DNA of 64,000 nt from a virus (lineage: Duplodnaviria; Caudoviricetes), in the IMG/VR virus record IMGVR_UViG_3300007747_000009, positions 44,898 through 108,897 of that record, one strand, 5' to 3'. The position numbers and the translations under genes were made by a program. The notes under the pieces are model-generated. The model was not told the origin of the DNA and searched no databases. It worked only from the letters and a program-made list of their open reading frames with translations. Of the stretch, positions 1 to 37,427 are shown in pieces; position 1 is the stretch's first letter, and each line of letters begins with the position of its first letter.

Positions 1-528
1 AATCGCAACGATAATGGATTAATAATTGGAAACTTTATAATTAAAAAACTTATGAAGAAAGGTGAAAAAGGATTTGAGTATGATGGTATTTCTATTTCAC
101 AAATAGCCAGATGGAGTGTTAATGCTTATACAGTACTAGAATTTTTCAGATGTAGTGATGAAGACAACAAATACCAATCCAATAGTGAAAGTACTGGTGA
201 CCGTTACACCATCGATATTCGTAGTAATTATTGTGTAATTGAATATCAACACGAATACGAATTCTATAGTGATTTTGTTATTGCACAAGATGATATTCCA
301 TATGACAGTACTGCATCAGTAGAAGAACGCAAAATGAGTGTTGATATAGCTATCGATAATGTTATGCTTAATGAATTTATGCATGAGGTTATTGAATTTC
401 AAAGTTCAGGGTTGAAGAATATAAACATAATAAAATATAAACATAATTTAGGTGAAATAGATTTTATGCGGGAAGGTTTATACCAACAAATGATCAAACG
501 TCCATACTTTAAAAGGTTGATAAAATGA
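1..528 (+). CDS. FQ-motif paralog family protein (5'-truncated by window)
   Basis: Frame open from base 1 into the 52..528 ORF; motif EVIEFQSS; stop overlaps next ATG. Confidence 0.7.
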   Translation, partial: NRNDNGLIIGNFIIKKLMKKGEKGFEYDGISISQIARWSVNAYTVLEFFRCSDEDNKYQSNSESTGDRYTIDIRSNYCVIEYQHEYEFYSDFVIAQDDIPYDSTASVEERKMSVDIAIDNVMLNEFMHEVIEFQSSGLKNINIIKYKHNLGEIDFMREGLYQQMIKRPYFKRLIK

Positions 529-1172
529 ATCATCACAGTTTAGTACAGCATTATAAAATTCTAAAGCATATGGCTAATCTTTCTGAGGTGATGTTTAACA
601 ATGGTAAAAATCCAGACATAGCCAAAAGAATGAAATGGGACATATATGAAACTGATGATGACACCTATCGTGTGTTGTTTGATAAAACAACCAGTTTATT
701 TGAGTTAATCAGAATACACAAAAGTTCAGGTTATAAACTTGCTAATACTAGTATTACTAATACCGTTTTATCTTATGTTAATAATTATATTTACAGTGGG
801 GCAAGTAATGGTAGTAGTTTTGGATTAAGATTAAATTGTCGTGAAAAAGATATAATTTATGTCACACCAGATAACCGTTCTAAAATTGATCTTTCTATAT
901 TACCAGATACAGTACTTGAATTATTAGAAAGAGATTGTTATGAAGAATTAGAATTCCAATACAGTACTTTATACAATTTCGAAGGGCAATCATTTCAACT
1001 GTATTGCATTTATAGCCTTTTGTCACATGCAGATAATATTCATACATTTCCGGTTCCGGGTTATTATGTAAACATTGATTTAGTAAAACGTGTTTATGAA
1101 AGTGATATTGACGAAGTTGAATCAGCATTGTATAATTTATTACAAAAAACCATTAAGGATTTATCATGTTAA
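525..1172 (+). CDS. FQ-motif paralog family protein
   Basis: 215 aa; EELEFQYSTLYN; overlaps both neighbours. Confidence 0.8.
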   Translation: MNHHSLVQHYKILKHMANLSEVMFNNGKNPDIAKRMKWDIYETDDDTYRVLFDKTTSLFELIRIHKSSGYKLANTSITNTVLSYVNNYIYSGASNGSSFGLRLNCREKDIIYVTPDNRSKIDLSILPDTVLELLERDCYEELEFQYSTLYNFEGQSFQLYCIYSLLSHADNIHTFPVPGYYVNIDLVKRVYESDIDEVESALYNLLQKTIKDLSC

Positions 1173-1699
1173 AAGTTCGCTTTAAAATTTTATCCCTTTT
1201 AGAGGATATTTTAAAACATCTACAATTTAATTCGATTACTGATTTCACTCATAATATTGGCAATGATCATGTAGTTACCAGTCGTAATACTGAAAATGGT
1301 GGACACATAATTTCCATTTATTCATATAAAGATATGCTTCAAAAATATAGTTTAGATACTGGTGTAGAAAGTGAAATTGTATATGGTGTAATTACTATTC
1401 CACAACTATGTTTAGTTTTATCAATCACTAAATGTGAAGAACTAATACTACCCAATAAGGGTACTATTGCAATCCGAAATGATATAAATTTGAATACAGA
1501 TGCTGAGTCTACTTTATTCCAGTTGAGTACAATTTATGATGACACTATACTTACAGCACTTGCACTTGTATCACATTTTAAACACCATTCAGTACTACCT
1601 TTATTGAATTTGGGTTTTTCGTGTTATGCAGATGATGAAGATGAATTGAACAAGGTCATTACTGATTTAGAATCCATAAAGGAGAAGTTATATGAGTGA
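1166..1699 (+). CDS. FQ-motif paralog family protein
   Basis: 177 aa; SD AAGGA; ESTLFQLSTIYD. Confidence 0.8.
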   Translation: MLKVRFKILSLLEDILKHLQFNSITDFTHNIGNDHVVTSRNTENGGHIISIYSYKDMLQKYSLDTGVESEIVYGVITIPQLCLVLSITKCEELILPNKGTIAIRNDINLNTDAESTLFQLSTIYDDTILTALALVSHFKHHSVLPLLNLGFSCYADDEDELNKVITDLESIKEKLYE

Positions 1700-2213
1700 T
1701 ATTATTAGTACTTTTATGCAACGTGTAGTTAACTTACATAAATCAAAAACACTATCACGAGGGAGTCATATTAAATTTTTTAATAGCAAACATATTATTT
1801 TCATTTACAAAGATAAAGTTGAGTTCCGGGAAAAGAGTAATAATTTATGCAGATTAGCAATTGCGTTTTCTATGCGTGGGGAAGATAAAGCTAATAACTC
1901 CCGTGAGTTCGGAGGGGATGTTAGTTACTTATTCAAATCTAACTACAAACAAACTATTACCATTTACGATAATTCTGGAAGTTTTGAGATTGACATTCCA
2001 CGCTTCAATGACAATGAAGAAGAACTACTCTTTACCCTCAGTACTTTGAGTAATTCGGCTTTGTCTATTTTAATGTCATCAATTCTATTGACAATGGACA
2101 CTGCGTTGAATACAGTATACTCATATGGTCTTCAGAACGAGGATCTTGAATCATTTAGTGAAATCATGGGGATGGCAGAAGAATGGAATACCAAAATTAC
2201 ACAAATCTATTAA
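1692..2213 (+). CDS. FQ-motif paralog family protein (variant)
   Basis: 173 aa; SD AGGAG; EELLFTLSTLSN. Confidence 0.75.
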   Translation: MSDIISTFMQRVVNLHKSKTLSRGSHIKFFNSKHIIFIYKDKVEFREKSNNLCRLAIAFSMRGEDKANNSREFGGDVSYLFKSNYKQTITIYDNSGSFEIDIPRFNDNEEELLFTLSTLSNSALSILMSSILLTMDTALNTVYSYGLQNEDLESFSEIMGMAEEWNTKITQIY

Positions 2214-2770
2214 AGTCAGTATTACATTTAGATAAGATTGAGAACTCTTTTTTCGGTGAAATTTCTTTTCAATGGGATAAATTTCATTTACCAATTGAAA
2301 TGACAATATACAAAGATAAAGGAGATGTTGAATTGACAACAAAGATTGATAAAGATAACAATCATTGTCCTAAATTAATTCAGATTCGTCTTTATAAATT
2401 AGATCCTGATGTAACTGAAGCAAGTTTTTGTCGGGCTACATCATATACTAATCTCGACTTACAAACATTGAACTACGCTGAATATAATTCAGATAAAATT
2501 CATCTTTCGGGATTAGCACTAACTGACCGTAACTTTCATCTGAACTACGATTCATATGAGAGTGAACATTTTCAGTACTCAACAATTGAAGAGATAAGAG
2601 ATATAGAGTTTTACCACAATTTGCATCACCTCTATGGTCACTTCAATACTATAATGCCACAGTATAAAGGATTATCCATTCAGTACAATCAAGATTACAC
2701 TGATTTTTTGACTGAAGAGTTTCGTGAATTTATAACTCAAAAAGCATGGGGATTGATTTCACTAGCATGA
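2183..2770 (+). CDS. FQ-motif paralog family protein
   Basis: 195 aa; ESEHFQYSTIEE. Confidence 0.8.
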   Translation: MEYQNYTNLLKSVLHLDKIENSFFGEISFQWDKFHLPIEMTIYKDKGDVELTTKIDKDNNHCPKLIQIRLYKLDPDVTEASFCRATSYTNLDLQTLNYAEYNSDKIHLSGLALTDRNFHLNYDSYESEHFQYSTIEEIRDIEFYHNLHHLYGHFNTIMPQYKGLSIQYNQDYTDFLTEEFREFITQKAWGLISLA

Positions 2771-3447
2771 AAACTACATATGAAAAGACTATAAAATTAT
2801 CTCAGTACATTAAAGATATTATGTACATGCAAAAGTACTACTTGGATATATACCATGAAATCAACAAAGTATATATTGCAGGAAAACGTACTACTAAAAA
2901 GTTATCAGTTGAATCAGTAAGATCATACTCTATGTATATTCAACCAGTTGAACAAGTTGTTCAAAGTTCAGTACAGCAAAAGAATGACTATAATGATATA
3001 GTACTAATGTCATTATCTAATTCAGATGCACATATTAAAAATAATACAAATAAAGGTGCAAAGTACAAGTACATTCATCAATTTTCATCAGATCCTAAAG
3101 GTTCAATTTTCAATACAGAAGCAATAGCCGAACAGTACAGAGATTTGTATTTTATTTTAGACAACGGTATTAACAACAACACAATAAAAGAATCGGAATT
3201 CCAAGCTTCATTGTTGAGTTGCAATGAAAGCATGGTTAGGATATACTTGTATACATTATTGTTTGATTCTTTAAAAGATATGCAGTTCGAAGACCAATAT
3301 CCGGTTTCATTATGTTTATCTAGTACAGATATACTCAGATACATACCTGCAAGAAAAGCATATATTGACTTATTAGATAAGAGAGTGGGGACTAGACATG
3401 ATTGGAGAGAAGAACTTAAAGTGCGTTATGGACGTACTATTGAATGA
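2767..3447 (+). CDS. FQ-motif paralog family protein
   Basis: ATGA overlap start chosen; KESEFQASLLSCN. Confidence 0.75.
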   Translation: MKTTYEKTIKLSQYIKDIMYMQKYYLDIYHEINKVYIAGKRTTKKLSVESVRSYSMYIQPVEQVVQSSVQQKNDYNDIVLMSLSNSDAHIKNNTNKGAKYKYIHQFSSDPKGSIFNTEAIAEQYRDLYFILDNGINNNTIKESEFQASLLSCNESMVRIYLYTLLFDSLKDMQFEDQYPVSLCLSSTDILRYIPARKAYIDLLDKRVGTRHDWREELKVRYGRTIE

Positions 3448-3994
3448 TGAACTATATTTTGCACTACATTCATTACTAGAACGTTTTAATAACTTCAGGG
3501 CAGAACATATTAATAGTACTGGGTATGATGGATTGAATAATATTATCTCAAAGCATGGTCTAATGGATTCTGAGACTTGGAGAGATGCTCTTTATATCAG
3601 AACCACACAACCTAATGCTGGAAGTGTTGGTTCTGTATTGGAGTTAAGACAGTATGTTACAAATCACCCAGAGAATACTTTAGTAAGTAATAGAATGGAA
3701 ATTGAAGGTTATGCAAGAGCAACTGACATTAGTCCAATTAGAACAATAGTTTCTAGTAATGTTAGTGATAGTGTTGGATGGTACTTAGTAGATAATTATG
3801 TTACTGATGATGTGGAGGCAGAATTATTCCAACTCAATACTATACATGAGGTGTACAGTACTTATGAGCTTCAAGAGATCATGAACAGGGCAATGAATCT
3901 GCCTCTTCTTCAAAATGATCACTTGACAATCTTAGAAGGAATGGTGTATCATGATGCCTATAAACACATGAACAATATTCTACGGGGTTATTAA
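3428..3994 (+). CDS. FQ-motif paralog family protein
   Basis: EAELFQLNTIHEVYSTYEL; start uncertain. Confidence 0.75.
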   Translation: MDVLLNDELYFALHSLLERFNNFRAEHINSTGYDGLNNIISKHGLMDSETWRDALYIRTTQPNAGSVGSVLELRQYVTNHPENTLVSNRMEIEGYARATDISPIRTIVSSNVSDSVGWYLVDNYVTDDVEAELFQLNTIHEVYSTYELQEIMNRAMNLPLLQNDHLTILEGMVYHDAYKHMNNILRGY

Positions 3995-4401
3995 TGATTT
4001 TATATCATGCCAGTACTGTACAAATTGATGAATTCTTTGTCCCTCATGGTGGTATACACACAGGAGGGCGTCATAGTGCTCTTGAGGCGGCCTTGCGTAA
4101 GGTTCGTGGGGACAATGCAAACGAAGACATTAAGATATATGTGCATCGCTTAGACGTTGATCTAGGGCGTTCTGTGCTATTGGATGATATGGGAAATTGT
4201 GATAGTTGGCGTAGAATGATCATTGATTGCGACCGCGAAGGGTATAGCAGTATTGAGTACAGTAATGTGTATGAACCGGATGTATGTAATTCTTATATGA
4301 TATGGGAACCAAGTAGGATTAAAGTCCTATCTATTGAAGTACTTAGTCAAGATGCAGCGGAGGATATCGTTAATGAATTTTACGAAACGTATAACCTTTA
4401 G
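3994..4401 (+). CDS. Putative ADP-ribosyltransferase-fold protein
   Basis: N-terminal LYHAS..GIHTG and C-terminal YxNxYE..SYMIWEPSRIK pattern resemble small ART-fold domains. Confidence 0.45.
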   Translation: MILYHASTVQIDEFFVPHGGIHTGGRHSALEAALRKVRGDNANEDIKIYVHRLDVDLGRSVLLDDMGNCDSWRRMIIDCDREGYSSIEYSNVYEPDVCNSYMIWEPSRIKVLSIEVLSQDAAEDIVNEFYETYNL

Positions 4402-4987
4402 TGATGATGTGGATGAGGAAATTTACATCTTCAAGATGATGATTGATATTAGTGAGCGTATTCATGGACTTAGAATTGTAGGTGAAGTTCAAGTGAATGA
4501 TAATATTGATATGATCTTTAAATTAAATTGCAATGCCAGTACTAATATAATAGTATTAAAAAATAAGAACCGCATTGATAAAACTATGTTAATGGTTAGT
4601 GATAGGGAGACGATGGATCTAATTAATGTCAGGTTGTCAACTCATTGGGGCTTTAATCGTAACCCAAATAGTGATAATGTTAATAGATTTTCATTTGTAA
4701 ATAGCAATCAAGAAAATTTAGATGAAGAACTAGATTCATACCTAGAAGGTGGTGTAATGAATATACCAGAAGATTATTATTTCCAGCAAATGTTGGTTCG
4801 TGATGATTTGATTGCATATGAGGACATTCAACGCTATCTGGATGCATTGACTATGAAATCCACCTTGAATGGGTGTGTCTGTTTTTATAAAATTCCCGAA
4901 TATACATATATTGAATATAATTTAATCTACGATAAAGTACTAGAAACGATAACGGAGTTTTTATATGGCATTTCAAAAACGGACTGA
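4373..4987 (+). CDS. FQ-motif paralog family protein
   Basis: SD GGAGG; MNFTKRITF..DEEIY matches next gene's MAFQKRTEF..DEEIY; EDYYFQQMLVRDDLIAYEDI. Confidence 0.8.
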   Translation: MNFTKRITFSDDVDEEIYIFKMMIDISERIHGLRIVGEVQVNDNIDMIFKLNCNASTNIIVLKNKNRIDKTMLMVSDRETMDLINVRLSTHWGFNRNPNSDNVNRFSFVNSNQENLDEELDSYLEGGVMNIPEDYYFQQMLVRDDLIAYEDIQRYLDALTMKSTLNGCVCFYKIPEYTYIEYNLIYDKVLETITEFLYGISKTD

Positions 4988-5561
4988 ATTTATAGATGAA
5001 GTAGATGAAGAGATATATAATTTTTCGGTAATAGTACAGATAGCTGAGCATCTTTACGGTTCAGACATGCATTTCTATCGAGAAGAAATTCCAAATGTAG
5101 GTTTCATTTGGACAGCGAGAAATTCAGGGACTGATACTAATATTTTATGCTTTATGAAATCAATAGGTTCAAAAGTATATGAGATTTTAGAAGTGAGTTC
5201 GTCTCAAGTTCTAATGAATGTAAGACTTAAAAAACATATTGCTATTACACGCCTACGCAATGAATACCGATATAAATATTCATTTTTCGATAAGGATAAA
5301 TGTGAGTTAGATGATCTTCTCGATGGTGGTATTATGAGAATTACAGAGGAAGAATATTTCCAGTACTCATTAGTTTGTAATGATTATATGGCTCATTATG
5401 AAGACCTACCACGCTTCATGGAGATGTTAAAAATCGAAACTTCACTAGATCACGTTTCCCTTTATCATGAAAAATGCAAACATCTTACTGCAAAAGAATA
5501 TAATGAAATTTATGATGTTGTTTTAACTAAATTGTATGAGTTCGAAAATGAACATAAATGA
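4965..5561 (+). CDS. FQ-motif paralog family protein
   Basis: SD GGAG; EEEYFQYSLVCNDYMAHYEDL. Confidence 0.8.
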   Translation: MAFQKRTEFIDEVDEEIYNFSVIVQIAEHLYGSDMHFYREEIPNVGFIWTARNSGTDTNILCFMKSIGSKVYEILEVSSSQVLMNVRLKKHIAITRLRNEYRYKYSFFDKDKCELDDLLDGGIMRITEEEYFQYSLVCNDYMAHYEDLPRFMEMLKIETSLDHVSLYHEKCKHLTAKEYNEIYDVVLTKLYEFENEHK

Positions 5562-6108
5562 AGAATTAAAAATACTTAAGATTGTACTAAGCATATGTGA
5601 AGGTATAAGTACATCTAATATACAGCCCGGACATTATACTTATGATATTACACCGTCACCTAAAGGACGGTTAATATTCAATAATAAGGATTCATTTTCA
5701 ATTTTGTATGGTGACACTGTAATTTTATATATAGAAAATTATGAATATCCACAATTGAGAACTGATAGTGACTGGACAATTTGCTTTGAGCCGTCATCTG
5801 AACATTATAATTGTTTTAGTTTCTTAAATTCGGGCGATGATTTAGAAGCTGAAGAATTTATAGATAGTTTCACTTATAATGCAAGAATTATGACAGAGGA
5901 AGAGTACTTTCAGGCTACATGTATTCATCCAGATATGCCCCCGTATGAAAATATATCTAGTTATTTAAAAATTATGGATGAAATGCGTAGATCATTTTTG
6001 CGGGGATCGTTATGGTTAAAAATGAAACCTGCATTGGATTATGATTTTTACAGAAAACTACGGCGTACTCTTATTCACGAAGGTGGGATTAATATAAATG
6101 TATATTAG
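5536..6108 (+). CDS. FQ-motif paralog family protein
   Basis: EEEYFQATCIHPDMPPYENI. Confidence 0.8.
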   Translation: MSSKMNINEELKILKIVLSICEGISTSNIQPGHYTYDITPSPKGRLIFNNKDSFSILYGDTVILYIENYEYPQLRTDSDWTICFEPSSEHYNCFSFLNSGDDLEAEEFIDSFTYNARIMTEEEYFQATCIHPDMPPYENISSYLKIMDEMRRSFLRGSLWLKMKPALDYDFYRKLRRTLIHEGGININVY

Positions 6109-6709
6109 TGATGATGATTATATAAAAGCATTAGAGATTAACTTATCGCTGTTTACTCTCATGCGAAAGATTTATAAGTACGTAATATTGTATGAAGGTG
6201 AGACAATACTTTCTAAATCACTGATTAAAATACATGATAACGAACTCAAATATATGGCTGGGATTGAAAAATCATGGATATTAAAATCACCCCTTGAAAA
6301 TTCTAGATATAGTATTGCTTTTGAGTTTAATCAAATGTCTATGATATATGGCTCAGCACAGTCATATTTAAACATATTCAATGGTGATGAAATAATTCTG
6401 AATAGTGAATATAGTAAATTTATTATAACTGGATTTCCCGAAGTTGATAAGCATTTTATGGGATGGGAATTTGATTTATCCGAAGAACAATATTTCCAGT
6501 ACTGTACTTTATATGATGTACCTAGTTACGATAGACTATTAAAAACTTGTAATCTATTAAAAGAGTTTCGTTATCACTCAGATCATCGAGATGGTGAAAA
6601 CCATTTATATTACAATATTCATTTCAAACAAATATGCAACAATCTAGAGGCATTTAGTGCAATCAGGGATGCACTTATTAAAAAATTAGGAGAATTTGAA
6701 AATGTATGA
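6098..6709 (+). CDS. FQ-motif paralog family protein
   Basis: EEQYFQYCTLYDVPSYDRL. Confidence 0.8.
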   Translation: MYISDDDYIKALEINLSLFTLMRKIYKYVILYEGETILSKSLIKIHDNELKYMAGIEKSWILKSPLENSRYSIAFEFNQMSMIYGSAQSYLNIFNGDEIILNSEYSKFIITGFPEVDKHFMGWEFDLSEEQYFQYCTLYDVPSYDRLLKTCNLLKEFRYHSDHRDGENHLYYNIHFKQICNNLEAFSAIRDALIKKLGEFENV

Positions 6710-7169
6710 ATCTAATACCATACAAGTACTTGACAACATCAACACAATCAATTATATTGTACAGGATTGTTTGAAACACGTATCAGGTTCTAATGTTTCT
6801 GCCCGAAACACAGCGGTGAAGGGTGATGGATATGCAATGGATATTAAATTGGGTTATGCAAATTGTTACAATTTTCACATACGAACCCAGTACTTACAAG
6901 ATTTGTGCCGAGTCTATTTAAGTCCACGTGAGTTATATGTTCGGTACTCACCAAAATTTATGTTCGGTTACCATCCTAAAACTAAATTATTCTCAACAAA
7001 CTTATTCTCAGAAACCTTCACATTAGATGATATGGAGTCGGTATTCTTCACTCAAAACTGTTTAGACGGTTGGGGGTTGCAAGTTGAGTTTGATTGTGAT
7101 ATCATGAAAACAACACTTAACATGTGCAGGAAAATTCACGATGATTTCGTTATTTCTATCAAAAAATAA
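6702..7169 (+). CDS. FQ-motif paralog family protein (degenerate)
   Basis: SD AGGAG; ESVFFTQNCLD at equivalent position. Confidence 0.65.
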   Translation: MYESNTIQVLDNINTINYIVQDCLKHVSGSNVSARNTAVKGDGYAMDIKLGYANCYNFHIRTQYLQDLCRVYLSPRELYVRYSPKFMFGYHPKTKLFSTNLFSETFTLDDMESVFFTQNCLDGWGLQVEFDCDIMKTTLNMCRKIHDDFVISIKK

Positions 7170-7605
7170 AACACGCCTAACAACACTCGATGAATTGATT
7201 GATGTTGTTGTAACGAACAAAGACTTACTTCAAAAAGATGGTATTACAAACATAAATGGTATTGTTTTCTATCATTGCACAAATAGTGATGATGAGATTT
7301 TATTATCTTACGGTTCTAATTGTTTAAAAATCACAAAGCATCATTACCGTGATATTAAAAGATACCATGTATGTTCACATGAAATGACTTCAGATACAGA
7401 AAGATTTGAATTTGAAATAACAAAGGAGGGAGTTAATTTTGGAGATAAAACCGGTTCTGCTGTACTTCTCCCTCACGAAGCATTTGAATGTGAAATAAAC
7501 TTCTTCCAGTACACCCTAATGAATCTAAAGTATTCATGTACTGAACAAAGTATCATTAAACTCGTAAACTTAATACAAGAGGTATTAGATGTCAAACTTG
7601 GATAG
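7141..7605 (+). CDS. FQ-motif paralog family protein
   Basis: EINFFQYTLMN. Confidence 0.75.
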   Translation: MISLFLSKNKTRLTTLDELIDVVVTNKDLLQKDGITNINGIVFYHCTNSDDEILLSYGSNCLKITKHHYRDIKRYHVCSHEMTSDTERFEFEITKEGVNFGDKTGSAVLLPHEAFECEINFFQYTLMNLKYSCTEQSIIKLVNLIQEVLDVKLG

Positions 7606-8089
7606 TATCTTTAAAAGTCTAAGTAACCACTTTAATAGGGGTTCAAACAAATTAGTATCAAATAACAATTATGCAGTATACAGTGCTGGTACTATTCATC
7701 AGATCACAATCGAGAATGAAACAGTTATTATTGGACACGACACATTACGTTTAGTCTATACTAATACAGATAAGACTGCATCTGTTGCATTTTCTCCTGC
7801 TAAAATATCGGTTGGATCATATGTACGTGAGGTTGAACTCAACCTCAGTGTGATGAATGACGGATATAAGAATACATACAATCGTCTTCATGTGGATGGT
7901 GGTGAACTATTCCAACTTAGTACTGTATATGATTTTGACTTCACAATCCTCCAAGATATTTTAGCTAAATACTTAGAGCTTCTAAAAGTGATGAAAACTT
8001 CTGATAAATTAAATAATGATCATCCACAAATTGATGAGGCGATCAAAAATATTTCAGAAGCTGTTGCACTTTACAATAAAGAAGCATAA
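7589..8089 (+). CDS. FQ-motif paralog family protein
   Basis: SD GAGG; GGELFQLSTVYD. Confidence 0.8.
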   Translation: MSNLDSIFKSLSNHFNRGSNKLVSNNNYAVYSAGTIHQITIENETVIIGHDTLRLVYTNTDKTASVAFSPAKISVGSYVREVELNLSVMNDGYKNTYNRLHVDGGELFQLSTVYDFDFTILQDILAKYLELLKVMKTSDKLNNDHPQIDEAIKNISEAVALYNKEA

Positions 8090-11032: not shown

Positions 11033-11812
11033 ATGATAAGCATAAAAGAAATAGCAGAATTCCAAGCACAACAGTACGATATGATCACAACAGAAGCTAA
11101 CAAAATTCATCCTAAATTACTTCGAAGAATAAGCTTTGATGAACTTTTTAGTGATGATTTTAAAGCTCAAGAATACGAAGATCAATATAATAAAAATATT
11201 AAACCATTAATTCGTTATTATGAAACTGAATTGGACAAAATGATCAACAGCCACCTGTATGATATTTTAGAGGGTTGGATCATAATTCATCCAGATAAAC
11301 ATTTTGGATTTGAATTTGATACAGGGAAACCAGTATCAGTTGTTCCAAGTGATATACTAGATGCATTGAATGGTGATATACTCATTAACGTGGAATTGGA
11401 AGATTATTATTCAGTAGTTAGGGAGATGAAAGAAGAATATACATTGAAACCATTCTGGCAGTATAGCTATGTATTATACGGTAATGGTCAACGTCCATCA
11501 TTAAGTACATATAGTACTTCAGAGGCATACATAAAGTATAATAGATTACTATACAAAAATGTTTATTCTACGTATGAACAGGTAGCCAATATAGCTACTG
11601 ATATATCAAGTCTTCCCTTTAAAATGAATTATCCACCAATGGATAATAATCTAAAAAGTGCTTTTGTAAATAGTGATTTAACTAAAATGTTAAAACATCA
11701 TAAAGTACTAAACGCATTCTTCGAAAAATTTGGGAAAGATGCGGGTACTGGTGATTATTCTTCATACGAAGATGAGAATGGAAAAATTAAATTCACGAGG
11801 ATTCAATATTGA
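11033..11812 (+). CDS. Hypothetical protein
   Basis: 259 aa; SD GGAGG. Confidence 0.8.
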   Translation: MISIKEIAEFQAQQYDMITTEANKIHPKLLRRISFDELFSDDFKAQEYEDQYNKNIKPLIRYYETELDKMINSHLYDILEGWIIIHPDKHFGFEFDTGKPVSVVPSDILDALNGDILINVELEDYYSVVREMKEEYTLKPFWQYSYVLYGNGQRPSLSTYSTSEAYIKYNRLLYKNVYSTYEQVANIATDISSLPFKMNYPPMDNNLKSAFVNSDLTKMLKHHKVLNAFFEKFGKDAGTGDYSSYEDENGKIKFTRIQY

Positions 11813-12648
11813 AACTACAACTACTATATGACTTTCTAAGCCCCCCTGATAATGATGGAGATTATGTGGATGAGGATGTTGGATATGCATCAAATTCGTA
11901 TACTAACTCAAAGCTACCACATGAACATACTAATTTTCATAGTTCACTATTCAGTCGAATGAGTAAGTACTTTAAATCTATAAATCGTTATGCTACTATT
12001 AGTTTAGTAGAAGTACCTGATGATGTAATGTTTCAGTACATGATTGAAAACGTATTTGACTATGATTATGTTTCGTATGATATGTTTCAGCATAGAATTT
12101 GCATATCGAATTCTAAGTATGAAAGTACTCGTTATGGGCGGGAGTCATATGGATACGCCACAGCTTCAAACTCTTCTAGCTATGCAAATGGTAATATTTT
12201 TACATTCGGTCATGAGCATAATTCTGAATTGGAAAAAACCCAAGATGAAAGAAAGACGTACTGCATTGTTCCAGATGCAGAACATTATTCAAATATTTTA
12301 GAAGTACTTAGGCCACATGTGGTTTATGAATTTGCTAGGTGGTTTAAAGAGGGAGCTAGGATTATTGGTGAAACTCAGGATCTTGGAATTATTTCATACT
12401 CAGATGACCCGGTTGGTGACTATGGATATAATTCAGTTAAGAATTCTGGAAGAATTTTTCTTGATAATGAAAAAGGCAGTACCGAGACATTCAATCTCAG
12501 ATATGACCAATTTTCTACGTGTATGGACTTCTGGATGAATGATCATGTACTATTCACAGAAGCACGTCAGTTCATTTCAGATCTCGAGGTAGAGGCTTAC
12601 AGAGCGTTATATGCGATGATTCATACTGAAATAACTGAGACAAAATGA
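11809..12648 (+). CDS. Hypothetical protein (possible N-proximal FQ-motif)
   Basis: 279 aa; TTG start overlapping stop; DDVMFQYMIEN. Confidence 0.75.
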   Translation: MKLQLLYDFLSPPDNDGDYVDEDVGYASNSYTNSKLPHEHTNFHSSLFSRMSKYFKSINRYATISLVEVPDDVMFQYMIENVFDYDYVSYDMFQHRICISNSKYESTRYGRESYGYATASNSSSYANGNIFTFGHEHNSELEKTQDERKTYCIVPDAEHYSNILEVLRPHVVYEFARWFKEGARIIGETQDLGIISYSDDPVGDYGYNSVKNSGRIFLDNEKGSTETFNLRYDQFSTCMDFWMNDHVLFTEARQFISDLEVEAYRALYAMIHTEITETK

Positions 12649-17083: not shown

Positions 17084-17659
17084 ATGACATTTGAAGAAGC
17101 AGATTATGCAAACTTTAACAACGCATTGGAATCTTTCGAATTTCTAATAAGTAAAAGTTCAGAAAATGAACCATTGAACCATATTGGTTTTTATAACAAA
17201 AATGACAGGTACTCTAGAACTGATGAAACTGAAACTCATCAGATTTATTACCGTCTAAAAACGAAACCTTCCATTATTGCGTATAATAAAGCAATATCTA
17301 TGTCTCTGTTTTCGTTTGAATCATTTAATATTGGATTATTAACAAGTACTAATTTAATCCGGTATAATTGTTATGAAAATAATTGGATGATTCGTATTGA
17401 AACAAACAATACTAAATTCACAATAATAGATAGTACTGAAAAGATTGAGCTGGATATAACAAGTGAAGCCGATTTATTTCAGTTCACTCTTCTATGTCCA
17501 TCATTTCCAGAGTACTTATTTGATTTTGCAAGAAAATCTATGCATCTTATTAGTACATCTGATGATATTAATAAAGTACTTTTAAAAAGTGAACGTTGTA
17601 TTATAGATTTAGGTATTGCGAATTTAAGAGAAGAGTACAATAGAGTTTATAAGGAGTAG
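17084..17659 (+). CDS. FQ-motif paralog family protein
   Basis: EADLFQFTLLCPSFPEY. Confidence 0.75.
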   Translation: MTFEEADYANFNNALESFEFLISKSSENEPLNHIGFYNKNDRYSRTDETETHQIYYRLKTKPSIIAYNKAISMSLFSFESFNIGLLTSTNLIRYNCYENNWMIRIETNNTKFTIIDSTEKIELDITSEADLFQFTLLCPSFPEYLFDFARKSMHLISTSDDINKVLLKSERCIIDLGIANLREEYNRVYKE

Positions 17660-18473: not shown

Positions 18474-18773
18474 ATGAGTTATAATATTCGAATGGTTCCT
18501 AATGATGTATGGTTTCAAATAGAAGCGAAATATGTTGATCATAATTCAGTAGTGTATAAAAAACCGGAAGGTAAGAGTTATACATTATTCGACTATGTTA
18601 CTGTTGGTGACACTACTGTACAATCTACCCCTGACACTAAATTTTTATATTCAGGTAATCATAACTACCAAAGTATATCTAGTTCTACTGTATTTTGGAT
18701 TAAAGCCAGTTTAAATGATATATATGAATTAGTTGATGAAATTGATTCTATGGGAAGCGACTGGGATAAATGA
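18474..18773 (+). CDS. Hypothetical protein
   Basis: SD GGAG. Confidence 0.7.
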   Translation: MSYNIRMVPNDVWFQIEAKYVDHNSVVYKKPEGKSYTLFDYVTVGDTTVQSTPDTKFLYSGNHNYQSISSSTVFWIKASLNDIYELVDEIDSMGSDWDK

Positions 18774-19321
18774 TTATGTATAGTGAAAACATTAAAGTAC
18801 TTCTTGATTTATATAAGTTGTTTTTCAATCACGAGTTACAGTCTACTCTTATGTTGAATGAACCAGAAATTATGTATAAATTAGATGGTTTAAATAGAAT
18901 TCACTGGACTGGTCATTTTCTAAAAATAATTATTGATAATTATCCAATTACTATTGGTCCAAATCTTCTACCACAACAACACGAATCAGTTAATTTTAAA
19001 AATGTAGCTTCTTTCTTAACTAAAAGATTAACAATAGTTTTAAACTCTCCAAATTTATATACTAATATCGGAGATGAACTTATAAGTACTCATTCCTTTC
19101 TGAACGAAGAGGTACATTTCCAGTACTCTACGGTAATTAACATTCCAGATTTAGATATAATTCAGGATATGTGTTACGTCTGTGATGAAATTATAAAAAT
19201 GAATTTGTACTATTCTGGTACATATCAAGTTCCATACCAATTTAATTTAAAATCAATTCTCAGGTATTTGAAGAAAACATATCCAGAGAAAGACGGACAC
19301 CATTGGAGTTTAGATGATTAG
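18770..19321 (+). CDS. FQ-motif paralog family protein
   Basis: EEVHFQYSTVINIPDLDII. Confidence 0.8.
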   Translation: MIMYSENIKVLLDLYKLFFNHELQSTLMLNEPEIMYKLDGLNRIHWTGHFLKIIIDNYPITIGPNLLPQQHESVNFKNVASFLTKRLTIVLNSPNLYTNIGDELISTHSFLNEEVHFQYSTVINIPDLDIIQDMCYVCDEIIKMNLYYSGTYQVPYQFNLKSILRYLKKTYPEKDGHHWSLDD

Positions 19322-19898
19322 TTTAAATGAACTGAAAAGTATTTTAGACACTACTTATGATATTATAAAATATGGCGAATCTTCCAAAAAAACTGAGTGC
19401 ATTGAGGAAATAAATTCAGGAATTCTTCATCAACATTATATAACATATACAAGTCGTTTTCATGATAAAATGAAACCATCATATCAGTACTACAGCAGAG
19501 ATTCAGAATCGAATAGAGGGGACTGTTTAATTTCTGAAATTGTAATTGAATCATATACCGAAGAAGATAACATTGGTATTTCATATATTTTTATTAAGAA
19601 TGATGGAGCATATGAATTAAATCTTTTTCCAAAAAGTATTGATGAAATTCAATTTAGAGTACCCGGATATAAAGTACTACTTAGTGAAATACTTAATGAT
19701 CCTGCACTTCTTTTTCAGATTAGTACATTACATGAAGTTCCTGAAATTGAATTTTTATTAAATTTAAGTACTATTGTACAAGAACTAAAAATTAAAATGA
19801 TGAACTATAAGTATAAAACTTATTGCTCTATTACAAAAAAGATGCCCTCTAATAATTATATTCATAAATTTCATGATAAGATGGAAGGTAAATTATAA
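19314..19898 (+). CDS. FQ-motif paralog family protein
   Basis: PALLFQISTLHEVPEIEFL. Confidence 0.8.
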   Translation: MISLNELKSILDTTYDIIKYGESSKKTECIEEINSGILHQHYITYTSRFHDKMKPSYQYYSRDSESNRGDCLISEIVIESYTEEDNIGISYIFIKNDGAYELNLFPKSIDEIQFRVPGYKVLLSEILNDPALLFQISTLHEVPEIEFLLNLSTIVQELKIKMMNYKYKTYCSITKKMPSNNYIHKFHDKMEGKL

Positions 19899-20492
19899 AT
19901 GATTGATTTCAAAAATTTATACCATATGATAAATTGTAGTTTAGATGCAATGGAAGAAGGTAAATTTGTTAGTGACATCTTTGAACATTCAGTAATTGAT
20001 TCTAATAATATAACTCATAGACATAAACTTGTGTATATAAAAAGCAAAGATAAATTATCCCCGCTTTATTCATATAGGTCGAATAGTGCTAGTACTAAAT
20101 CTTTTAATTATACAATTGAAGAATACAATAAAGACGCATCACACTATCCCGCAACCGATACCAATTTATATATTTCGATGGATAAAGATTACAAATCATT
20201 CGCGTTGTATCCGAATAAACTAGATGATATTAAAGTAACACTAGTTGAAAATAATATGGTTCAGGCTGAATTAAATTTGAACGATCTACTTCACGAAGAA
20301 TATCATTTTCAAACTAGTACTATATATAATCTTCCTAGCTATGATTTATTGTATGATTTTTCTAAAATGATACAGAAATTAAGAGGGAGATTATTAAACA
20401 AAAACTATAAAATAGTAGGGAGATTGCCTACTGTGATAACCAATAACTATTCAGAAGAATTTCTTACAAAAATAATAAGGATTAACTCGTGA
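19899..20492 (+). CDS. FQ-motif paralog family protein
   Basis: EEYHFQTSTIYNLPSYDLL; close paralog of 19314..19898. Confidence 0.8.
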   Translation: MIDFKNLYHMINCSLDAMEEGKFVSDIFEHSVIDSNNITHRHKLVYIKSKDKLSPLYSYRSNSASTKSFNYTIEEYNKDASHYPATDTNLYISMDKDYKSFALYPNKLDDIKVTLVENNMVQAELNLNDLLHEEYHFQTSTIYNLPSYDLLYDFSKMIQKLRGRLLNKNYKIVGRLPTVITNNYSEEFLTKIIRINS

Positions 20493-21013
20493 CCAATAGA
20501 GATGTTAAATCAATGGTGGTGTACCTTCATGATCTTTATCTTGAATCATTAACGAATACCGATCCTTTCCATGAAGAGATTATTGGTACATGTAAATTAT
20601 CAGTAACACACAAACAATGTACTATCACGGAACAAAGTCCCGTTAAAATGAAAATAGCACTACTAGATGGAATTAGTGATATCTATTCAAAAATATTCTG
20701 TAATAAGTCATTTCCTAGTATAGTTATTTCTCCGGGGTCGTACAATAAGGTGGTTATTATGGGGGGTGAATTGAAAAAGCACAAACCCGTAGGTACTGAA
20801 TCTGATGATATAACCATTGATATTATGAATTTGGATGAATCTATGTTATTTCAACTAAGTACTGTAAGAGAAATTCCAGACATTTCGGTATTCGAAAAGA
20901 TACAAAAATATTATGAATCTCTTTATAAATTTTGTTCCATGTACAAAAAAACTCTTATTTTAAATCTTTCAATGAATTGGGACGATATTTTTAGCACAGG
21001 AGAAGAGAAATGA
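20489..21013 (+). CDS. FQ-motif paralog family protein
   Basis: ESMLFQLSTVREIPDISVF. Confidence 0.8.
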   Translation: MTNRDVKSMVVYLHDLYLESLTNTDPFHEEIIGTCKLSVTHKQCTITEQSPVKMKIALLDGISDIYSKIFCNKSFPSIVISPGSYNKVVIMGGELKKHKPVGTESDDITIDIMNLDESMLFQLSTVREIPDISVFEKIQKYYESLYKFCSMYKKTLILNLSMNWDDIFSTGEEK

Positions 21014-21660
21014 AAAATATACAATCTTTATTATTTTATTTTGAAATGATCAATCAATGGCGTGGATTTTCAAATATGCAGAGCATATTTTCACTAACCC
21101 CTAGTGTCAAATATGCTAAGATGTTTGACGAAGTATATTACGGTTTAAGTCATGAACAAAGTAAGTACGAACTATATATTACTTCTAATAAAAATACTGG
21201 TGCTATTGGTTTTATGGTTGAAGACAGGGATTTAAACGCTCCAGTACTATTTGGTAATCTTCAGGATTGGGGAAATTCTACTAGAATGTATCCAGAATGG
21301 ATGAAGGTTCAAATGGAATCAACACAATTAGCTTTTTATGATAAAAATAATAAAATAATAATGAACGTAGATCCTGAAATATTGGAAGAAGAACACTTCC
21401 AACTAATGATGATTCATGATTTACCACCATTCGAAACATTACATAAAGCAATTGATGTTAATAATTACTTACGACCAATAGCTAAGAAACACAAAATTGG
21501 ATTTTCAATAGATTATGCACATCTAGATATGGACTTTACTTATTTTTTTCCTAGTAATAAAGCATTCGATATTATCGATTCTGTATATGGTAATGCATTA
21601 CAATTATATTATGAGGCAGAAGAACATGGCAATCCCTTCAACTACTACGTTATATCATGA
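21010..21660 (+). CDS. FQ-motif paralog family protein
   Basis: EEEHFQLMMIHDLPPFETL. Confidence 0.8.
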   Translation: MKNIQSLLFYFEMINQWRGFSNMQSIFSLTPSVKYAKMFDEVYYGLSHEQSKYELYITSNKNTGAIGFMVEDRDLNAPVLFGNLQDWGNSTRMYPEWMKVQMESTQLAFYDKNNKIIMNVDPEILEEEHFQLMMIHDLPPFETLHKAIDVNNYLRPIAKKHKIGFSIDYAHLDMDFTYFFPSNKAFDIIDSVYGNALQLYYEAEEHGNPFNYYVIS

Positions 21661-22777
21661 GTTATTAGAACTTTGTAACAAAAATGAAGCATTTTATTTT
21701 AATGATTCAGTATCAAAAGGTGGTGGTAAATATCGCACCTTTACATACCGGTTAGCATCATATACTGACTTCTTACAGCCAAGTGCTTTGAGTTGTCGTG
21801 GTACTATGTTTGAAATCGATGAAAACGGTAATACAATCCGTATGGCATGTCGTACTCCACAGAAATTTTTCAATGCGTACGAAAATCCTATGGTCATGTT
21901 CCCTACCGATTTACTCAGTACTGAAATCACCCTCGCAATGGATAAACGTGACGGTTCTATTATCAGTACTTTTATGGATAATGATAAAGTTATCCGTACT
22001 AAGTCTCAAACATCGATGCACAGCGAACATGCGGTGAATTCTACGGCTTTAATCCACGCCGATGATGAATTGCACCAAGGAATCATTGAAGCTGACAGCG
22101 AGGGTTATACGGTGAATTTGGAATATACTTCCCCTGAGTTCAGAATTGTGTTACCATATCAAACTGATGAATTGGTGGTATTAAATCTACGTCACCGCGA
22201 AACGGGTGAGCTATTGGCAGGTGAAGAGTTAAAAGCTCGTTTCCCTGTTCTATACAACAAATCAGTATTTTCTTTGTATGGAAATATTGACAAAACCTTC
22301 CCGATGTGTAATACTATCAGGGAATCTGTTGATGCAGTTTTCCGTATGACTGATATCGAGGGTTTTGTCGTGCAACTTAAAGATGGAACCATGTTTAAGA
22401 TCAAGACTGATTGGTATTGTGCATTACACTTCCGAAAGGATAGTATTAATGTGGATTCCCGATTATATGAAGTAGTACTAGTAGGTGCATCAGATGATTT
22501 ACGTCAAATGTTTGCAACTGATCAGTACTGTCTTGATAAAATTGCACGAATGGAAAAGCTAGTATTTTCAACATACAATCATTTACAAACTGAAGTTGAA
22601 GAGTTTGTGGAGAAGTACAAAAAACTTGGTCGAAAAGATTTTGCATTACAGGTACAACTGGATTTGTCCAAAAAACTCAATCGTCAAGGATTAGCTTTTG
22701 CACTATATAATGGCAAGAAAGTTGATTACAAAGAAGTAATGTTGAAGTACATGAGAGATGTGTTAGAAAACTTCTAA
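21626..22777 (+). CDS. rnlA: RNA ligase 1 (T4 RnlA family)
   Basis: YRLASY, CRG, KFFN, KRDGS (motif I), EGFVV, KIKTDWY. Confidence 0.9.
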   Translation: MAIPSTTTLYHELLELCNKNEAFYFNDSVSKGGGKYRTFTYRLASYTDFLQPSALSCRGTMFEIDENGNTIRMACRTPQKFFNAYENPMVMFPTDLLSTEITLAMDKRDGSIISTFMDNDKVIRTKSQTSMHSEHAVNSTALIHADDELHQGIIEADSEGYTVNLEYTSPEFRIVLPYQTDELVVLNLRHRETGELLAGEELKARFPVLYNKSVFSLYGNIDKTFPMCNTIRESVDAVFRMTDIEGFVVQLKDGTMFKIKTDWYCALHFRKDSINVDSRLYEVVLVGASDDLRQMFATDQYCLDKIARMEKLVFSTYNHLQTEVEEFVEKYKKLGRKDFALQVQLDLSKKLNRQGLAFALYNGKKVDYKEVMLKYMRDVLENF

Positions 22778-22804
22778 TACATTAAGCCAAGACATGGAGA
22801 AGTT

Positions 22805-23068
22805 ATGGCTAACACAAAATATAAACTTGCTAAAGGGGCTGTTCGCACACCAGAAGAACATAGAAAAGTACTACAAGAAATTGACGCATTACAGTCATCA
22901 AGATCCTTACAAGGGGTTAAGAAGAGTAAAAAGCGTATAGCCAATACATTTGGTGTAAGTAGTACTATGTATAAGAAGGATCACAAGCCCAAGAAGCCGA
23001 AACAAGAAAGAATCTATGATAAAAATAGATTCATTCAAAACATGGGGAGAACAGACTACCGTGACTAA
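22805..23068 (+). CDS. Small basic hypothetical protein
   Basis: 87 aa; SD GGAG. Confidence 0.7.
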   Translation: MANTKYKLAKGAVRTPEEHRKVLQEIDALQSSRSLQGVKKSKKRIANTFGVSSTMYKKDHKPKKPKQERIYDKNRFIQNMGRTDYRD

Positions 23069-23288
23069 TCAAACTGTATCAGTACTAACCATCAATTATC
23101 ACGATGAAAAATGGTTTTGCATTGAATCACGTGCTGGTTGTAAGTATAACGATATGCAAGATATTTACAATCATTGTATTGGAATTGGTAATAAGATTTT
23201 CAGTATAAACAATAATTTGTACTTTGATTCGGAAGCATTTTTCAATATAGATTTAATGTTTTCTACATACGACTTTATCACAATTTAG
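23016..23288 (+). CDS. Hypothetical protein
   Basis: 90 aa; start uncertain. Confidence 0.55.
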   Translation: MIKIDSFKTWGEQTTVTNQTVSVLTINYHDEKWFCIESRAGCKYNDMQDIYNHCIGIGNKIFSINNNLYFDSEAFFNIDLMFSTYDFITI

Positions 23289-23299
23289 GAGAAGTAATC

Positions 23300-23569
23300 A
23301 TGAAATTATATGTAACTCACAGTATCATTCGCGATATGTCCGTAGTTAAATTTTTCTCATTAGATGATTATCGTCGTTGTATAGCTTTCTTGCATAAAGA
23401 GAAGCAGGAATGGATCCCATTAAAATATAGTTCAAAAAATAACACAGCCAGTATTCGGGTAGGTGAAGTTGAATTGAATTGTATTATCAATAAATTTGGA
23501 GATAAACAAAATGCCAGTACTAACACTAACAGTGGGACTACCGGGTTGCGGGAAGACGACGTGGGCTAA
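23300..23569 (+). CDS. Hypothetical protein
   Basis: 89 aa; SD AGGAG. Confidence 0.65.
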   Translation: MKLYVTHSIIRDMSVVKFFSLDDYRRCIAFLHKEKQEWIPLKYSSKNNTASIRVGEVELNCIINKFGDKQNASTNTNSGTTGLREDDVG

Positions 23570-24440
23570 CGAACAAGTTCGCACTGCAAAATCTAAAACC
23601 GTAAACGTCAACCTTGATGACGTTCGCCAGACAATGGCAGGTACACATAGTAACTACAAATTCCGTAAAGATAACGAAGAGTACGTACGTTCGGTACAGT
23701 GCAGTTCAGCGGAATATGCAGTTCAAAATAAATGGAACATCGTTGTATCTGACACAAACTTGAATCCTGAAGTACGCAAGAAATGGAAAGAGTTCGCAAC
23801 GGAACACGGATATACTTACAAAGAACATAACTTTTTTACAGAGTACAAGAAAGATAAAACTTTTGAACACGAATTCTTTGCTATCAAAGGCTTCGTTAAA
23901 CAATGTAAAGAACGTAACCTTCTTCGTGAGAAATCAGTACCTGAATCAGTAATCGATGATATGGCAGAAAAGTACTTGTACACTTTTGATAAAGTTATGA
24001 ATACTCCCGAAGTACTTGCTAGTACTGAAGAATATATCATCGTTGATGTTGATGGTACGGTTGCACACATGCATAACCGTAGTCCTTACAACGAAACCAA
24101 AGTCCGTGATGATCTTCCAGATCCTGAAGTAATCCTTTCAGTACTAGCTGAAAAGAACTACTTGGGTCGTAAGGTTATCGTGTTCAGTGGTCGTAAAGAA
24201 GCAACGATGGAAGATACGAAAGCATGGTTCAACGATCATAATGTTCCATATGACTTTATGTTCATGAGGGCAACCGATGACAACCGCAGTGATGATATCG
24301 TAAAATATGAGTTGTATATGCAGCATGTTTATGGTAAGCTTAACGTTGTTAAAGTTTATGATGACCGGGAAAAAGTTTGCCAAATGTGGAGAGAATTAAT
24401 CGGTCTTAAAGTCTTTCAAGTTGAGCCGGGGAAATTTTAG
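23511..24440 (+). CDS. pseT: Polynucleotide 5'-kinase/3'-phosphatase
   Basis: P-loop GLPGCGKT, SDTNL; HAD motifs DVDGT, SGR, YDDR. Confidence 0.92.
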   Translation: MPVLTLTVGLPGCGKTTWANEQVRTAKSKTVNVNLDDVRQTMAGTHSNYKFRKDNEEYVRSVQCSSAEYAVQNKWNIVVSDTNLNPEVRKKWKEFATEHGYTYKEHNFFTEYKKDKTFEHEFFAIKGFVKQCKERNLLREKSVPESVIDDMAEKYLYTFDKVMNTPEVLASTEEYIIVDVDGTVAHMHNRSPYNETKVRDDLPDPEVILSVLAEKNYLGRKVIVFSGRKEATMEDTKAWFNDHNVPYDFMFMRATDDNRSDDIVKYELYMQHVYGKLNVVKVYDDREKVCQMWRELIGLKVFQVEPGKF

Positions 24441-33998: not shown

Positions 33999-34027
33999 AT
34001 ACTTCCCAAACACATCAAGGAAGATAT

Positions 34028-35452: not shown

Positions 35453-35455
35453 GTA

Positions 35456-35905: not shown

Positions 35906-35906
35906 A

Positions 35907-36698: not shown

Positions 36699-36713
36699 TA
36701 AAAAGGAAAATAT

Positions 36714-37373: not shown

Positions 37374-37380
37374 TATAAAC

Positions 37381-37410
37381 AGTACCCCGTAATAGGGGTA
37401 CTTTATTTTT
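37381..37410 (+). terminator. Intrinsic terminator
   Basis: AGTACCCC-GTAATA-GGGGTACT then TTATTTTT. Confidence 0.7.
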
Positions 37411-37427
37411 ATCACTTTGAGGATTTT

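Follow-up and report, generated by a model that had tools for sequence, protein, structure and literature searches.

Why would a bacteriophage carry a head-to-tail run of small, overlapping genes that hardly resemble one another and share a short motif centered on Phe-Gln (FQ)? This question is raised by the first 8,089 positions of a 64,000-nucleotide stretch of viral DNA, hereafter the window, which corresponds to positions 44898-108897 of a 108,897-bp linear IMG/VR virus record (IMGVR_UViG_3300007747_000009, hereafter the contig) with a CheckV completeness estimate of 31%. The DNA ligase encoded on the contig is ~75% identical to the proteins of Salmonella phages PHA46, Munch, 7t3 and SE_PL and Klebsiella phage fENko-Kae01, and ~68% identical to those of 121Q-like coliphages. 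For this reason the contig is, as judged from its sequence, a fragment of an uncultured myovirus of the RaK2/121Q/Munch group, whose genomes are roughly 350 kb, and a distant relative of 121Q. The analysis presented here places most of the array genes in one full-length, clade-specific protein family in which the FQ motif looks more like a keystone of the fold than a detachable docking peptide, and which may constitute a battery of proteins directed against the host.

Array genes belong to one highly divergent family

The 15 open reading frames (ORFs) in window 1-8089 are co-directional on the + strand, encode 135-233 residues and overlap at 14 of 14 junctions by 1-68 nt. They make up the downstream third of a head-to-tail array of roughly 20 kb that is cut by the window edge and starts 11.8 kb further upstream, at contig position 33110. 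Are these genes related to each other beyond the motif? A first-pass annotation of the window had described 14 of them as unrelated outside a shared FQ motif, and BLASTP among the 15 genes indeed resolves clear links only for g09, g10 and g11, so that profiles are needed to address the question. An iterative hidden Markov model (HMM) search over the contig ORFs, seeded with g09-g11, converges on 37 full-length paralogs, all on the + strand and nearly all within arrays. Each can be recovered when left out of the profile; most expect values (E) then range from 1e-5 to 1e-23, the weakest being near 0.006. A profile built from external sequences only re-finds the paralogs with matches that span most of the 172-position model. 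Pooling the search with five relatives adds g04, for 38 copies on the contig and 213 members across six phages. The shared motif noted at the outset therefore stands, while the supposed lack of relationship in the remainder does not, since the profile homology is full-length even though the copies are mutually only ~15% identical.

Ten of the 15 genes in window 1-8089 (g02-g05, g07, g09-g12 and g15) are profile-supported. Upstream of the window, contig 33110-44772 holds 21 more members, and seven more copies lie within the window at 17084-17659, 18770-21660 and 62004-62411, such that the contig total of 38 is distributed over the main array, two smaller blocks and one outlier. All copies on the contig are intact ORFs with tight overlaps.

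The motif itself is well beyond chance expectation. Eleven of the 15 genes contain the strict pattern [ED]-x(2,3)-F-Q-x-[STCMQN], whereas 2000 composition-preserving shuffles yielded 0.26 on average and at most 4; such shuffling was the control that the first-pass annotation had proposed. The motif Phe lies 44-86 residues from the C-terminus, as compared with the roughly 45-95 residues estimated earlier. Over the 213 members F is conserved at 98%, Q at 96%, the first E at 79% (with a further 12% D) and S at 75%, while every remaining position is conserved at 57% or less, the next-best being mostly hydrophobic or aromatic. The family consensus reads [ST]-E-E-x-[YHL]-F-Q-x-S-[LT]-[IVL]-[YH]-[DN], and in the g09-g12 subgroup the D/N is often followed by P. 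Codons at the conserved positions vary synonymously among copies (F as TTT 21 times and TTC 13 times, Q as CAA 21 times and CAG 16 times, and S from both codon families), which indicates that conservation acts on the protein rather than on a DNA or RNA element and rules out a DNA-level element within the motif. A reading of Q-x-S-L-[IV] as a clamp-binding peptide of the QL[SD]LF type was also rejected, because T is no less frequent than L at position 4 and the motif is structured and helical. The array genes and the remaining family copies in the window are as follows.

g01, 52-528, + strand: 158 residues, reading frame open to the window edge; EVIEFQSS, which matches the pattern; no HMM or hhalign support; 29% identical to the syntenic Munch gene
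g02, 525-1172, + strand: member, EELEFQYSTLYN; leave-one-out E 1.4e-6, external-only profile E 7.5e-7
g03, 1166-1699, + strand: member, ESTLFQLSTIYD; leave-one-out E 5e-11, external-only profile E 2.9e-12
g04, 1692-2213, + strand: member in which FT replaces FQ, EELLFTLSTLSN; E 0.011 with the own-genome profile and 0.0011 with the external one; joined in the pooled search
g05, 2183-2770, + strand: member, ESEHFQYSTIEE; leave-one-out E 5.5e-6; phrog_34636 E 0.0026
g06, 2746-3447, + strand: 233 residues, borderline; ESEFQASLL (one residue short); external profile E 0.0096 over profile positions 5-136; hhalign 13 columns, probability 16%
g07, 3398-3994, + strand: member, EAELFQLNTIHE; leave-one-out E 4e-4; 36% identical to its Munch ortholog
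g08, 3994-4401, + strand: 135 residues, non-member, single-copy and conserved; phrog_11632 E 6.7e-43
g09, 4334-4987, + strand: member, EDYYFQQMLVRD; BLASTP E 5e-26 to g10 and 1.7e-8 to g11
g10, 4965-5561, + strand: member, EEEYFQYSLVCN; tblastn finds 29-31.5% identical genes in Munch, 7t3, SE_PL, PHA46 and fENko-Kae01
g11, 5536-6108, + strand: member, EEEYFQATCIHP; leave-one-out E 2.7e-9, external profile E 2.5e-12
g12, 6098-6709, + strand: member, EEQYFQYCTLYD; leave-one-out E 2.5e-7, external profile E 6.7e-11
g13, 6696-7169, + strand: 157 residues; DDMESVFFTQN, an FFTQ variant; no HMM or hhalign support; 58% identical to its Munch ortholog
g14, 7141-7605, + strand: 154 residues; EINFFQYTLMN, which matches the pattern; hhalign 11 columns only, probability 14%
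g15, 7589-8089, + strand: member and last gene of the main array, GGELFQLSTVYD; leave-one-out E 4.3e-6; 44% identical to its Munch ortholog
17084-17659, + strand: isolated member, profile-supported, with a near-consensus sigma-70 promoter upstream
18770-21660, + strand: second block of five members, profile-supported, directly upstream of the RNA ligase 1 gene and syntenic with Munch genes 100-103
62004-62411, + strand: short outlying member of 135 residues, EEEYFQQSIV; leave-one-out E 1.9e-7

What, then, are the array genes that the profiles do not support? Three of these five carry a pattern that is expected in ~2% of proteins, which suggests that they are very divergent members; g01 and g14, in which only the motif string occurs at the right place, are probably such members. 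In the orthologs of g13, E-x-x-F-x-x-Q is kept in 6 of 6 and F-F-x-Q in 5 of 6. Comparison by hhalign of ortholog sets for g01, g06, g08, g13, g14, g16 and an upstream 233-residue gene with the family alignment gave no significant match. Relatives of the array are visible only via profiles or with few members: the 8-kb stretch returned nothing in a megablast search of 50,697 phage records, and neither did the most typical member with tblastn. Elsewhere in the window, two adjacent + strand genes at 11033-11812 and 11809-12648 encode proteins of 259 and 279 residues that have no Pfam match and contain the FQ strings EIAEFQAQ and DDVMFQYM. They were rejected as members, as they do not match the family profile and their FQ strings occur at the chance rate.

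The motif is modelled within a single compact domain

The place of the motif in the protein was addressed by structure prediction. The AlphaFold2 model of a typical copy, computed with a 150-sequence alignment, is one compact alpha/beta domain with a mean predicted local distance difference test (pLDDT) score of 87.7 and a predicted template modelling score of 0.85; a model of g03 computed with 37 paralogs was poor (pLDDT 57.5). The predicted elements are a helix at residues 4-22, seven strands between 34 and 106, a helix at 113-120, a turn, a helix at 125-138, a strand at 147-153 and a terminal helix at 154-171. The sheet is roughly seven-stranded and its length varies between members, whose proteins are about 135-217 residues. 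The motif forms the eight-residue helix 113-120 (E-E-V-Y-F-Q-N-S) followed by a four-residue turn (L-I-Y-S), and this region is the best-predicted part of the model, with pLDDT of about 96. The S/T-E-E residues would serve as an N-terminal helix cap and the D/N would cap the next helix, while F, L/T, I/V and Y/H would pack in the core with Q as a conserved polar keystone. Taken together, the model makes the FQ motif look more like a keystone of the fold, as part of one compact domain, than like a detachable docking peptide.

This arrangement bears directly on the F-box-like design of the first-pass annotation, in which a variable N-terminal domain would be joined to a separate docking helix. 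Adaptors of the F-box, SOCS-box and BTB type follow the same general idea of a conserved element combined with a variable recognition part. In F-box proteins, some 40-50 residues fold into an independent three-helix domain, which binds Skp1 and stands beside a separate substrate-binding domain. In the phage family, by contrast, a motif of 12-13 residues is located inside one compact modelled domain, there is no separate substrate domain, and profile matches run over the full length, all of which argues against that design. No F-box Pfam domain was found among 150 members at E <= 0.01. The same annotation had named a buried core element of one ordinary fold, with no shared partner, as a finding that would speak against its own model, and the helix-cap pattern read here would fit such a fold-stabilising element. 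No relative in the PDB is detectable by sequence and Foldseek against the PDB returned nothing at E <= 0.001. A VIA fold search gave a best Z of 3.0 for the YdcD double-wing domain, which is at the noise level, with an immunity-protein flavour at ranks 1 and 6, and the ESM Atlas, whose own model of a family protein is poor, gave no usable match. A fold search of the viral structures in BFVD retrieved only uncharacterised proteins of jumbo enterobacterial phages, among them RaK2, GAP32, 121Q, SP27, Yersinia fHe-Yen9 phages, pEa_SNUABM_47 and Serratia BF.

Could the motif instead be a site of proteolytic processing? The string E-x-x-[YH]-F-Q resembles the potyviral NIa site, E-x-x-Y-x-Q with S/G after the scissile bond, and four of its positions, P6 (E), P3 (Y or H), P2 (F) and P1 (Q), conform to that consensus, such that a Gln-specific cut would divide each protein into two fragments. 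The agreement with the tobacco etch virus site ENLYFQ (followed by S/G) is one of string, E-x-x-Y-F-Q; the two differ in P1' and in the helical, structured context. At P1' the family usually has N, Y, L, Q or D, while G or S is rare and G is seen in a few external members. Moreover, the motif is modelled as helical in the most confident part of the fold and not as an exposed linker. The Peptidase_C3 and C4 Pfam models matched nothing in the contig, Munch, 121Q or RaK2, although control genomes were equally silent. The prohead proteases known from this clade are T4 gp21-like, and T4 cleavage occurs after Glu, not Gln. In RaK2 the prohead protease is gp092 (PMC3622015). We consider a processing site extremely improbable.

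The family is confined to one clade of jumbo phages

How widely is this family distributed? Searching the family profile against 1.84 billion protein cluster representatives matched only 129 clusters, which are stand-alone proteins of 68-216 residues and nearly all of which contain the motif [ST]EEx[YH]FQxS[LT][IVL]Y[DST]. Matches per genome number 24 in Munch, 40 in 121Q (mostly clustered at 161-186 kb), 37 in EJP2, 35 in Hallingskeid and 31 in RaK2, and 27 in phAPEC6 at a stricter cut-off (E <= 1e-5). Arrays are present in 121Q, EJP2, Hallingskeid, RaK2 and phAPEC6, and the arrays on the contig are collinear with Munch genes 054-081 and 100-103. On the basis of these profile searches, the family is restricted to the RaK2/121Q/Munch-like jumbo phage clade.

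No Pfam or NCBIfam model exists for the family, and no Pfam family was found among 150 members at E <= 0.01. Fourteen PHROG families are touched (phrog_12674, 9317, 34017, 22855, 13866, 34636 and others), all of unknown function, with phrog_12674 matched by 13 of 37 contig copies and phrog_9317 by 10 of 37 (best E 3.7e-9). These matches represent direct sequence membership, but PHROG splits one family into many small clusters, none of which has a function. The copies in Munch and RaK2 are all annotated as hypothetical. These results bear out the earlier statement that the genes have no described function. In the literature, the RaK2 genome paper reports that ~10% of RaK2 proteins are paralogues and says nothing more on the family (PMC3622015), and Hua et al. 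(2017, mBio) described a 121Q array of >30 genes as a tandem duplication adding to genome expansion (PMC5646251). The 121Q array of that study is most likely the same family, although the account is a single sentence and gives no motif, fold, family definition or function. None of the reviews and jumbo-phage genome papers that we found gives an account of the family or of its motif, fold or role.

Copies diverge rapidly under purifying selection

The evolutionary behavior of the array differs from that of its surroundings. Orthologs shared by the contig and Munch are 22-55% identical (mostly 22-45%), as compared with mostly 55-89% for neighbouring non-family genes, and gene order is collinear with Munch despite this low identity. 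In one sub-block the contig has 11 copies where Munch has 2, and because these 11 are only 24-44% identical to each other, the difference in copy number must be old or the copies must have diverged fast. Such divergence is unlike the plain tandem-duplication picture of the 121Q array (PMC5646251). The 20-kb stretch of 121Q that contains most of its array (160000-179999) is covered to at least 80% in only 6 of 36 matching phage records, at 82-97% identity. The same stretch is a hotspot of content variation, although the phAPEC6 genome is reported to be ~99% identical to 121Q overall (PMC7247149).

Selection was estimated from the ratio of non-synonymous to synonymous substitution rates (dN/dS) between 121Q and UE-S1; the pair EJP2 and 121Q is too divergent for this measure. 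When 47 family genes are pooled, 908 differences are non-synonymous and 715 synonymous, for a dN/dS of 0.27 as compared with 0.16 for 24 neighbours, and no single gene exceeds 0.57, which indicates that every copy is functional and constrained. In a comparison by segment in pairwise alignments, the beta region has the highest dN/dS (0.32), followed by the N-terminal helix (0.26), the C-terminal part (0.23) and the motif (0.17), and amino-acid differences between orthologs amount to 13.6% in the beta region and 8-9% in the helices and elsewhere. The sheet is the most plastic part of the protein, which agrees with the first-pass view that the motif region is conserved and the rest of the protein more variable.

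These values are relevant to the question of whether the array does anything at all. One hypothesis is that tandem duplications simply fill an enlarged capsid and are retained only for head filling, a view that draws on the genome-expansion account of the 121Q array (PMC5646251) and on the differences in copy number and content between relatives. Neutral padding of this kind is hard to reconcile with intact, tightly overlapping ORFs, with dN/dS of 0.27 overall and at most 0.57 in any gene, with collinearity to Munch at mostly 22-45% ortholog identity, and with a motif kept at 96-98%. It is disfavoured, and we judge it very unlikely.

An alternative hypothesis is that the proteins are enzymes, in which the invariant Gln with neighbouring Glu and Ser would form a catalytic or nucleotide/ligand site and the sheet would set the substrate. 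Conservation of Q at 96% and of E or D at 91% across copies that are ~15% identical, together with the strongest purifying selection at the motif (dN/dS 0.17), would be consistent with such a site. Enzymes, however, usually keep several separated catalytic or binding motifs, and here there is a single short conserved segment. There is also no enzyme-family similarity by sequence or fold, and thirty to forty paralogs of one enzyme would be unusual for a phage, which leaves an enzyme family decidedly unlikely.

Promoters, predicted localisation and virions

If the copies are functional, when and where would they act? The first array gene is preceded by a near-consensus extended -10 sigma-70 promoter, TTGACA-17-TATACT with an upstream TG, whose first hexamer is at contig 33066 and which ends 15 nt before the gene. 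The member at window 17084 likewise has TTGACA-16-TATAAT before it, with the first hexamer at window 17024, and a strong terminator-like hairpin with an 11-bp stem lies at contig 44781-44807, between the upstream block and g01. The relative CBB has a cluster of RpoD-like promoters among short hypothetical genes, in a region that was interpreted as early (PMC5259590); by analogy, early transcription of the array would be consistent with the early region proposed for that phage. The proteins are predicted to be soluble and are acidic, with a median isoelectric point of 4.96 and values below 6 in 35 of 37 copies, and hydropathy peaks are borderline at most (the two highest 19-residue means are 1.8 and 1.7).

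A family of diverse small phage proteins joined by one short conserved peptide also brings to mind the internal proteins of T4-type phages. In T4 the capsid-targeting sequence stands at the N-terminus, where the prohead protease removes it, and it directs the protein into the head. Some internal proteins act against host defence, as does T4 IPI*, which inhibits GmrSD. The FQ motif differs in being internal, and the family is absent from the virion proteomes of RaK2 and phAPEC6. The RaK2 array corresponds to ORF412-438, while the structural proteins detected or predicted in that phage fall in two other genome clusters (PMC3622015). Similarly, the phAPEC6 array corresponds to gp411c-465c, and the 62-protein virion proteome of this phage contains nothing from gp348 to gp548 (PMC7247149). 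The family is not packaged in the virions of these two relatives, which argues against the virion-loading site that the first-pass annotation had listed among possible docking partners.

A conserved embedded gene and the adaptor hypothesis

The array harbors one gene that does not behave like its neighbours. Orthologs of g08 are 45-61% identical and occur in the array regions of five relatives (hence in all six phages examined), making g08 far better conserved than the genes around it. Invariant residues include L-Y-H-x-S-T, G-G-x-H-x-G-G, EAALRK and Y-x-N-x-x-E-P-D. In a database of 5.8 billion proteins g08 forms 10 clusters, 0 of 10 with a Pfam domain; a weak similarity to Pfam DUF3990 covers the first 18 residues only (E 0.077), and a profile search against the PDB returned only spurious RecA-repeat matches. 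The protein may be an enzyme, and it is also a candidate shared partner of the array proteins.

The latter possibility is part of a broader hypothesis in which the FQ helix and turn, through a patch formed by E113, E114 and Q118, would dock on or recruit one machine, and the 30-40 paralogs would be its interchangeable targeting subunits, each delivering different host proteins that the variable sheet selects. The shared machine could be a g08-type protein, the phage ClpP working with a host unfoldase, a host chaperone or protease, or another host factor. The ClpP gene that the first-pass annotation placed in the window is indeed there:

36714-37373, + strand: ClpP-family protease (PF00574, E 1.9e-43), about 29 kb downstream of the array

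If a common partner exists, g08 is at least as good a candidate as ClpP. Several observations are in keeping with shared-partner adaptors: F and Q are kept at 96-98% while positions outside the motif reach at most 57%, the beta region is more variable than the helices, a helical wheel turns the variable positions 115 and 119 away from the conserved ones so that E113, E114 and Q118 could form a polar patch, and both a single-copy g08, 45-61% identical within the arrays of all six phages, and a ClpP gene are at hand. However, the motif is inseparable from a single compact, confidently modelled domain that the profile matches over its full length, and its S/T-E-E and D/N positions fit helix caps. 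Known ClpP partners dock through IGF/LGF loops, which the motif does not resemble, and the position of g08 within the arrays perhaps reflects merely inherited gene order. On balance, we regard adaptors for a shared partner as unlikely.

Neighbouring genes

The remainder of the window, in which a DNA ligase gene is also found, contains the following genes in addition to ClpP.

21587-24440, + strand: RNA ligase 1 (T4-type) and PNKP, directly downstream of the five-member FQ block
40489-43392, - strand: two long ORFs, of which there are few on this strand, encoding 640 residues with no Pfam match and 306 residues with two Big_2 Ig-like domains
43589-46760 and 49143-49976, + strand: nicotinamide mononucleotide (NMN) adenylyltransferase-Nudix fusion, NAMPT and a Sir2-family protein
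51597-53054, + strand: PIN-PhoH fusion
62969-64000, + strand: anaerobic ribonucleotide reductase (NrdD), of which only the first part is within the window

RNA ligase 1 and PNKP are a tRNA repair pair that counters anticodon nucleases. The NMN adenylyltransferase-Nudix, NAMPT and Sir2 genes look like a set for salvage and turnover of nicotinamide adenine dinucleotide (NAD), of the kind proposed to act against NAD-depleting defence. RNA repair and NAD salvage in the vicinity of the array are both plausibly counter-defence functions. The 306-residue Big_2 protein is possibly a decoration or adhesion protein. A PhoH-like protein of phAPEC6 is listed in the virion proteome of that phage (PMC7247149).

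Model for the FQ family

What explanation accounts best for a large, rapidly diverging and constrained family of this kind? We favour a model in which the FQ proteins, a multigene family specific to the RaK2/121Q/Munch clade, share one scaffold and serve as a battery of early, cytosolic binders directed at the host, and we give this model roughly an even chance of being correct. Sigma-70-type promoters at the heads of the blocks would be read by the host RNA polymerase and lead to early synthesis of the proteins. The FQ motif would hold the fold together through its helix caps, core Phe and invariant Gln, leaving the beta-sheet region as the diversified specificity surface, and individual members would bind or inhibit different host proteins in the course of takeover or anti-defence. 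Such a battery would be comparable to the MGF110/360/505 families of African swine fever virus (ASFV) and the host-range/ankyrin families of poxviruses, which are likewise tandem, co-oriented, variable in copy number, non-structural and faster-diverging than core genes. The ASFV and poxvirus multigene families have known host-range and immune-evasion roles. Their sequences and folds are unrelated to those of the phage family, and here the host is bacterial, such that the likeness is one of mode of action and not of membership.

A number of points weigh against this model. The idea that members bind host proteins is an argument from analogy and from evolutionary pattern only, and no member has a homology-based function in Pfam, NCBIfam, PHROG, PDB or fold searches. 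In the single pair compared (121Q and UE-S1), dN/dS is below 1 in every gene and segment, with no sign of the positive selection of an arms race. Taken over the whole region, sigma-70-like sites show no enrichment relative to shuffles, and early transcription is therefore something that we infer. With regard to the motif, burial of F and Q is read from the sequence pattern, while a helical wheel, on which variable positions 115 and 119 point away from the conserved ones, puts E114 and Q118 beside the hydrophobic face and outside of it. A small conserved polar surface patch at the motif is thus possible, and the combination of an invariant Gln with flanking acidic residues would also be in keeping with catalysis or ligand binding at this position.

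The scale of the family makes its role of interest for the biology of these phages, several of which (RaK2/121Q/Munch-like) are under study for therapy or biocontrol. Sharanji is cited as a cause of filamentation (PMC13282480). The 24-40 matches per genome represent very roughly 5-8% of the 530-610 annotated genes, and on the contig about 20 kb are invested in one array. A confident model without a solved counterpart, combined with purifying selection and rapid turnover, suggests a large unexplored toolkit for handling the host. If the adaptor hypothesis were true, these phages would encode a library-style system for reprogramming or destroying host and defence proteins. If members instead inhibit host or defence proteins, as in the model that we favour, the arrays would be a rich source of anti-defence or growth-inhibitory proteins and would help to explain why the genomes of this clade are so large.

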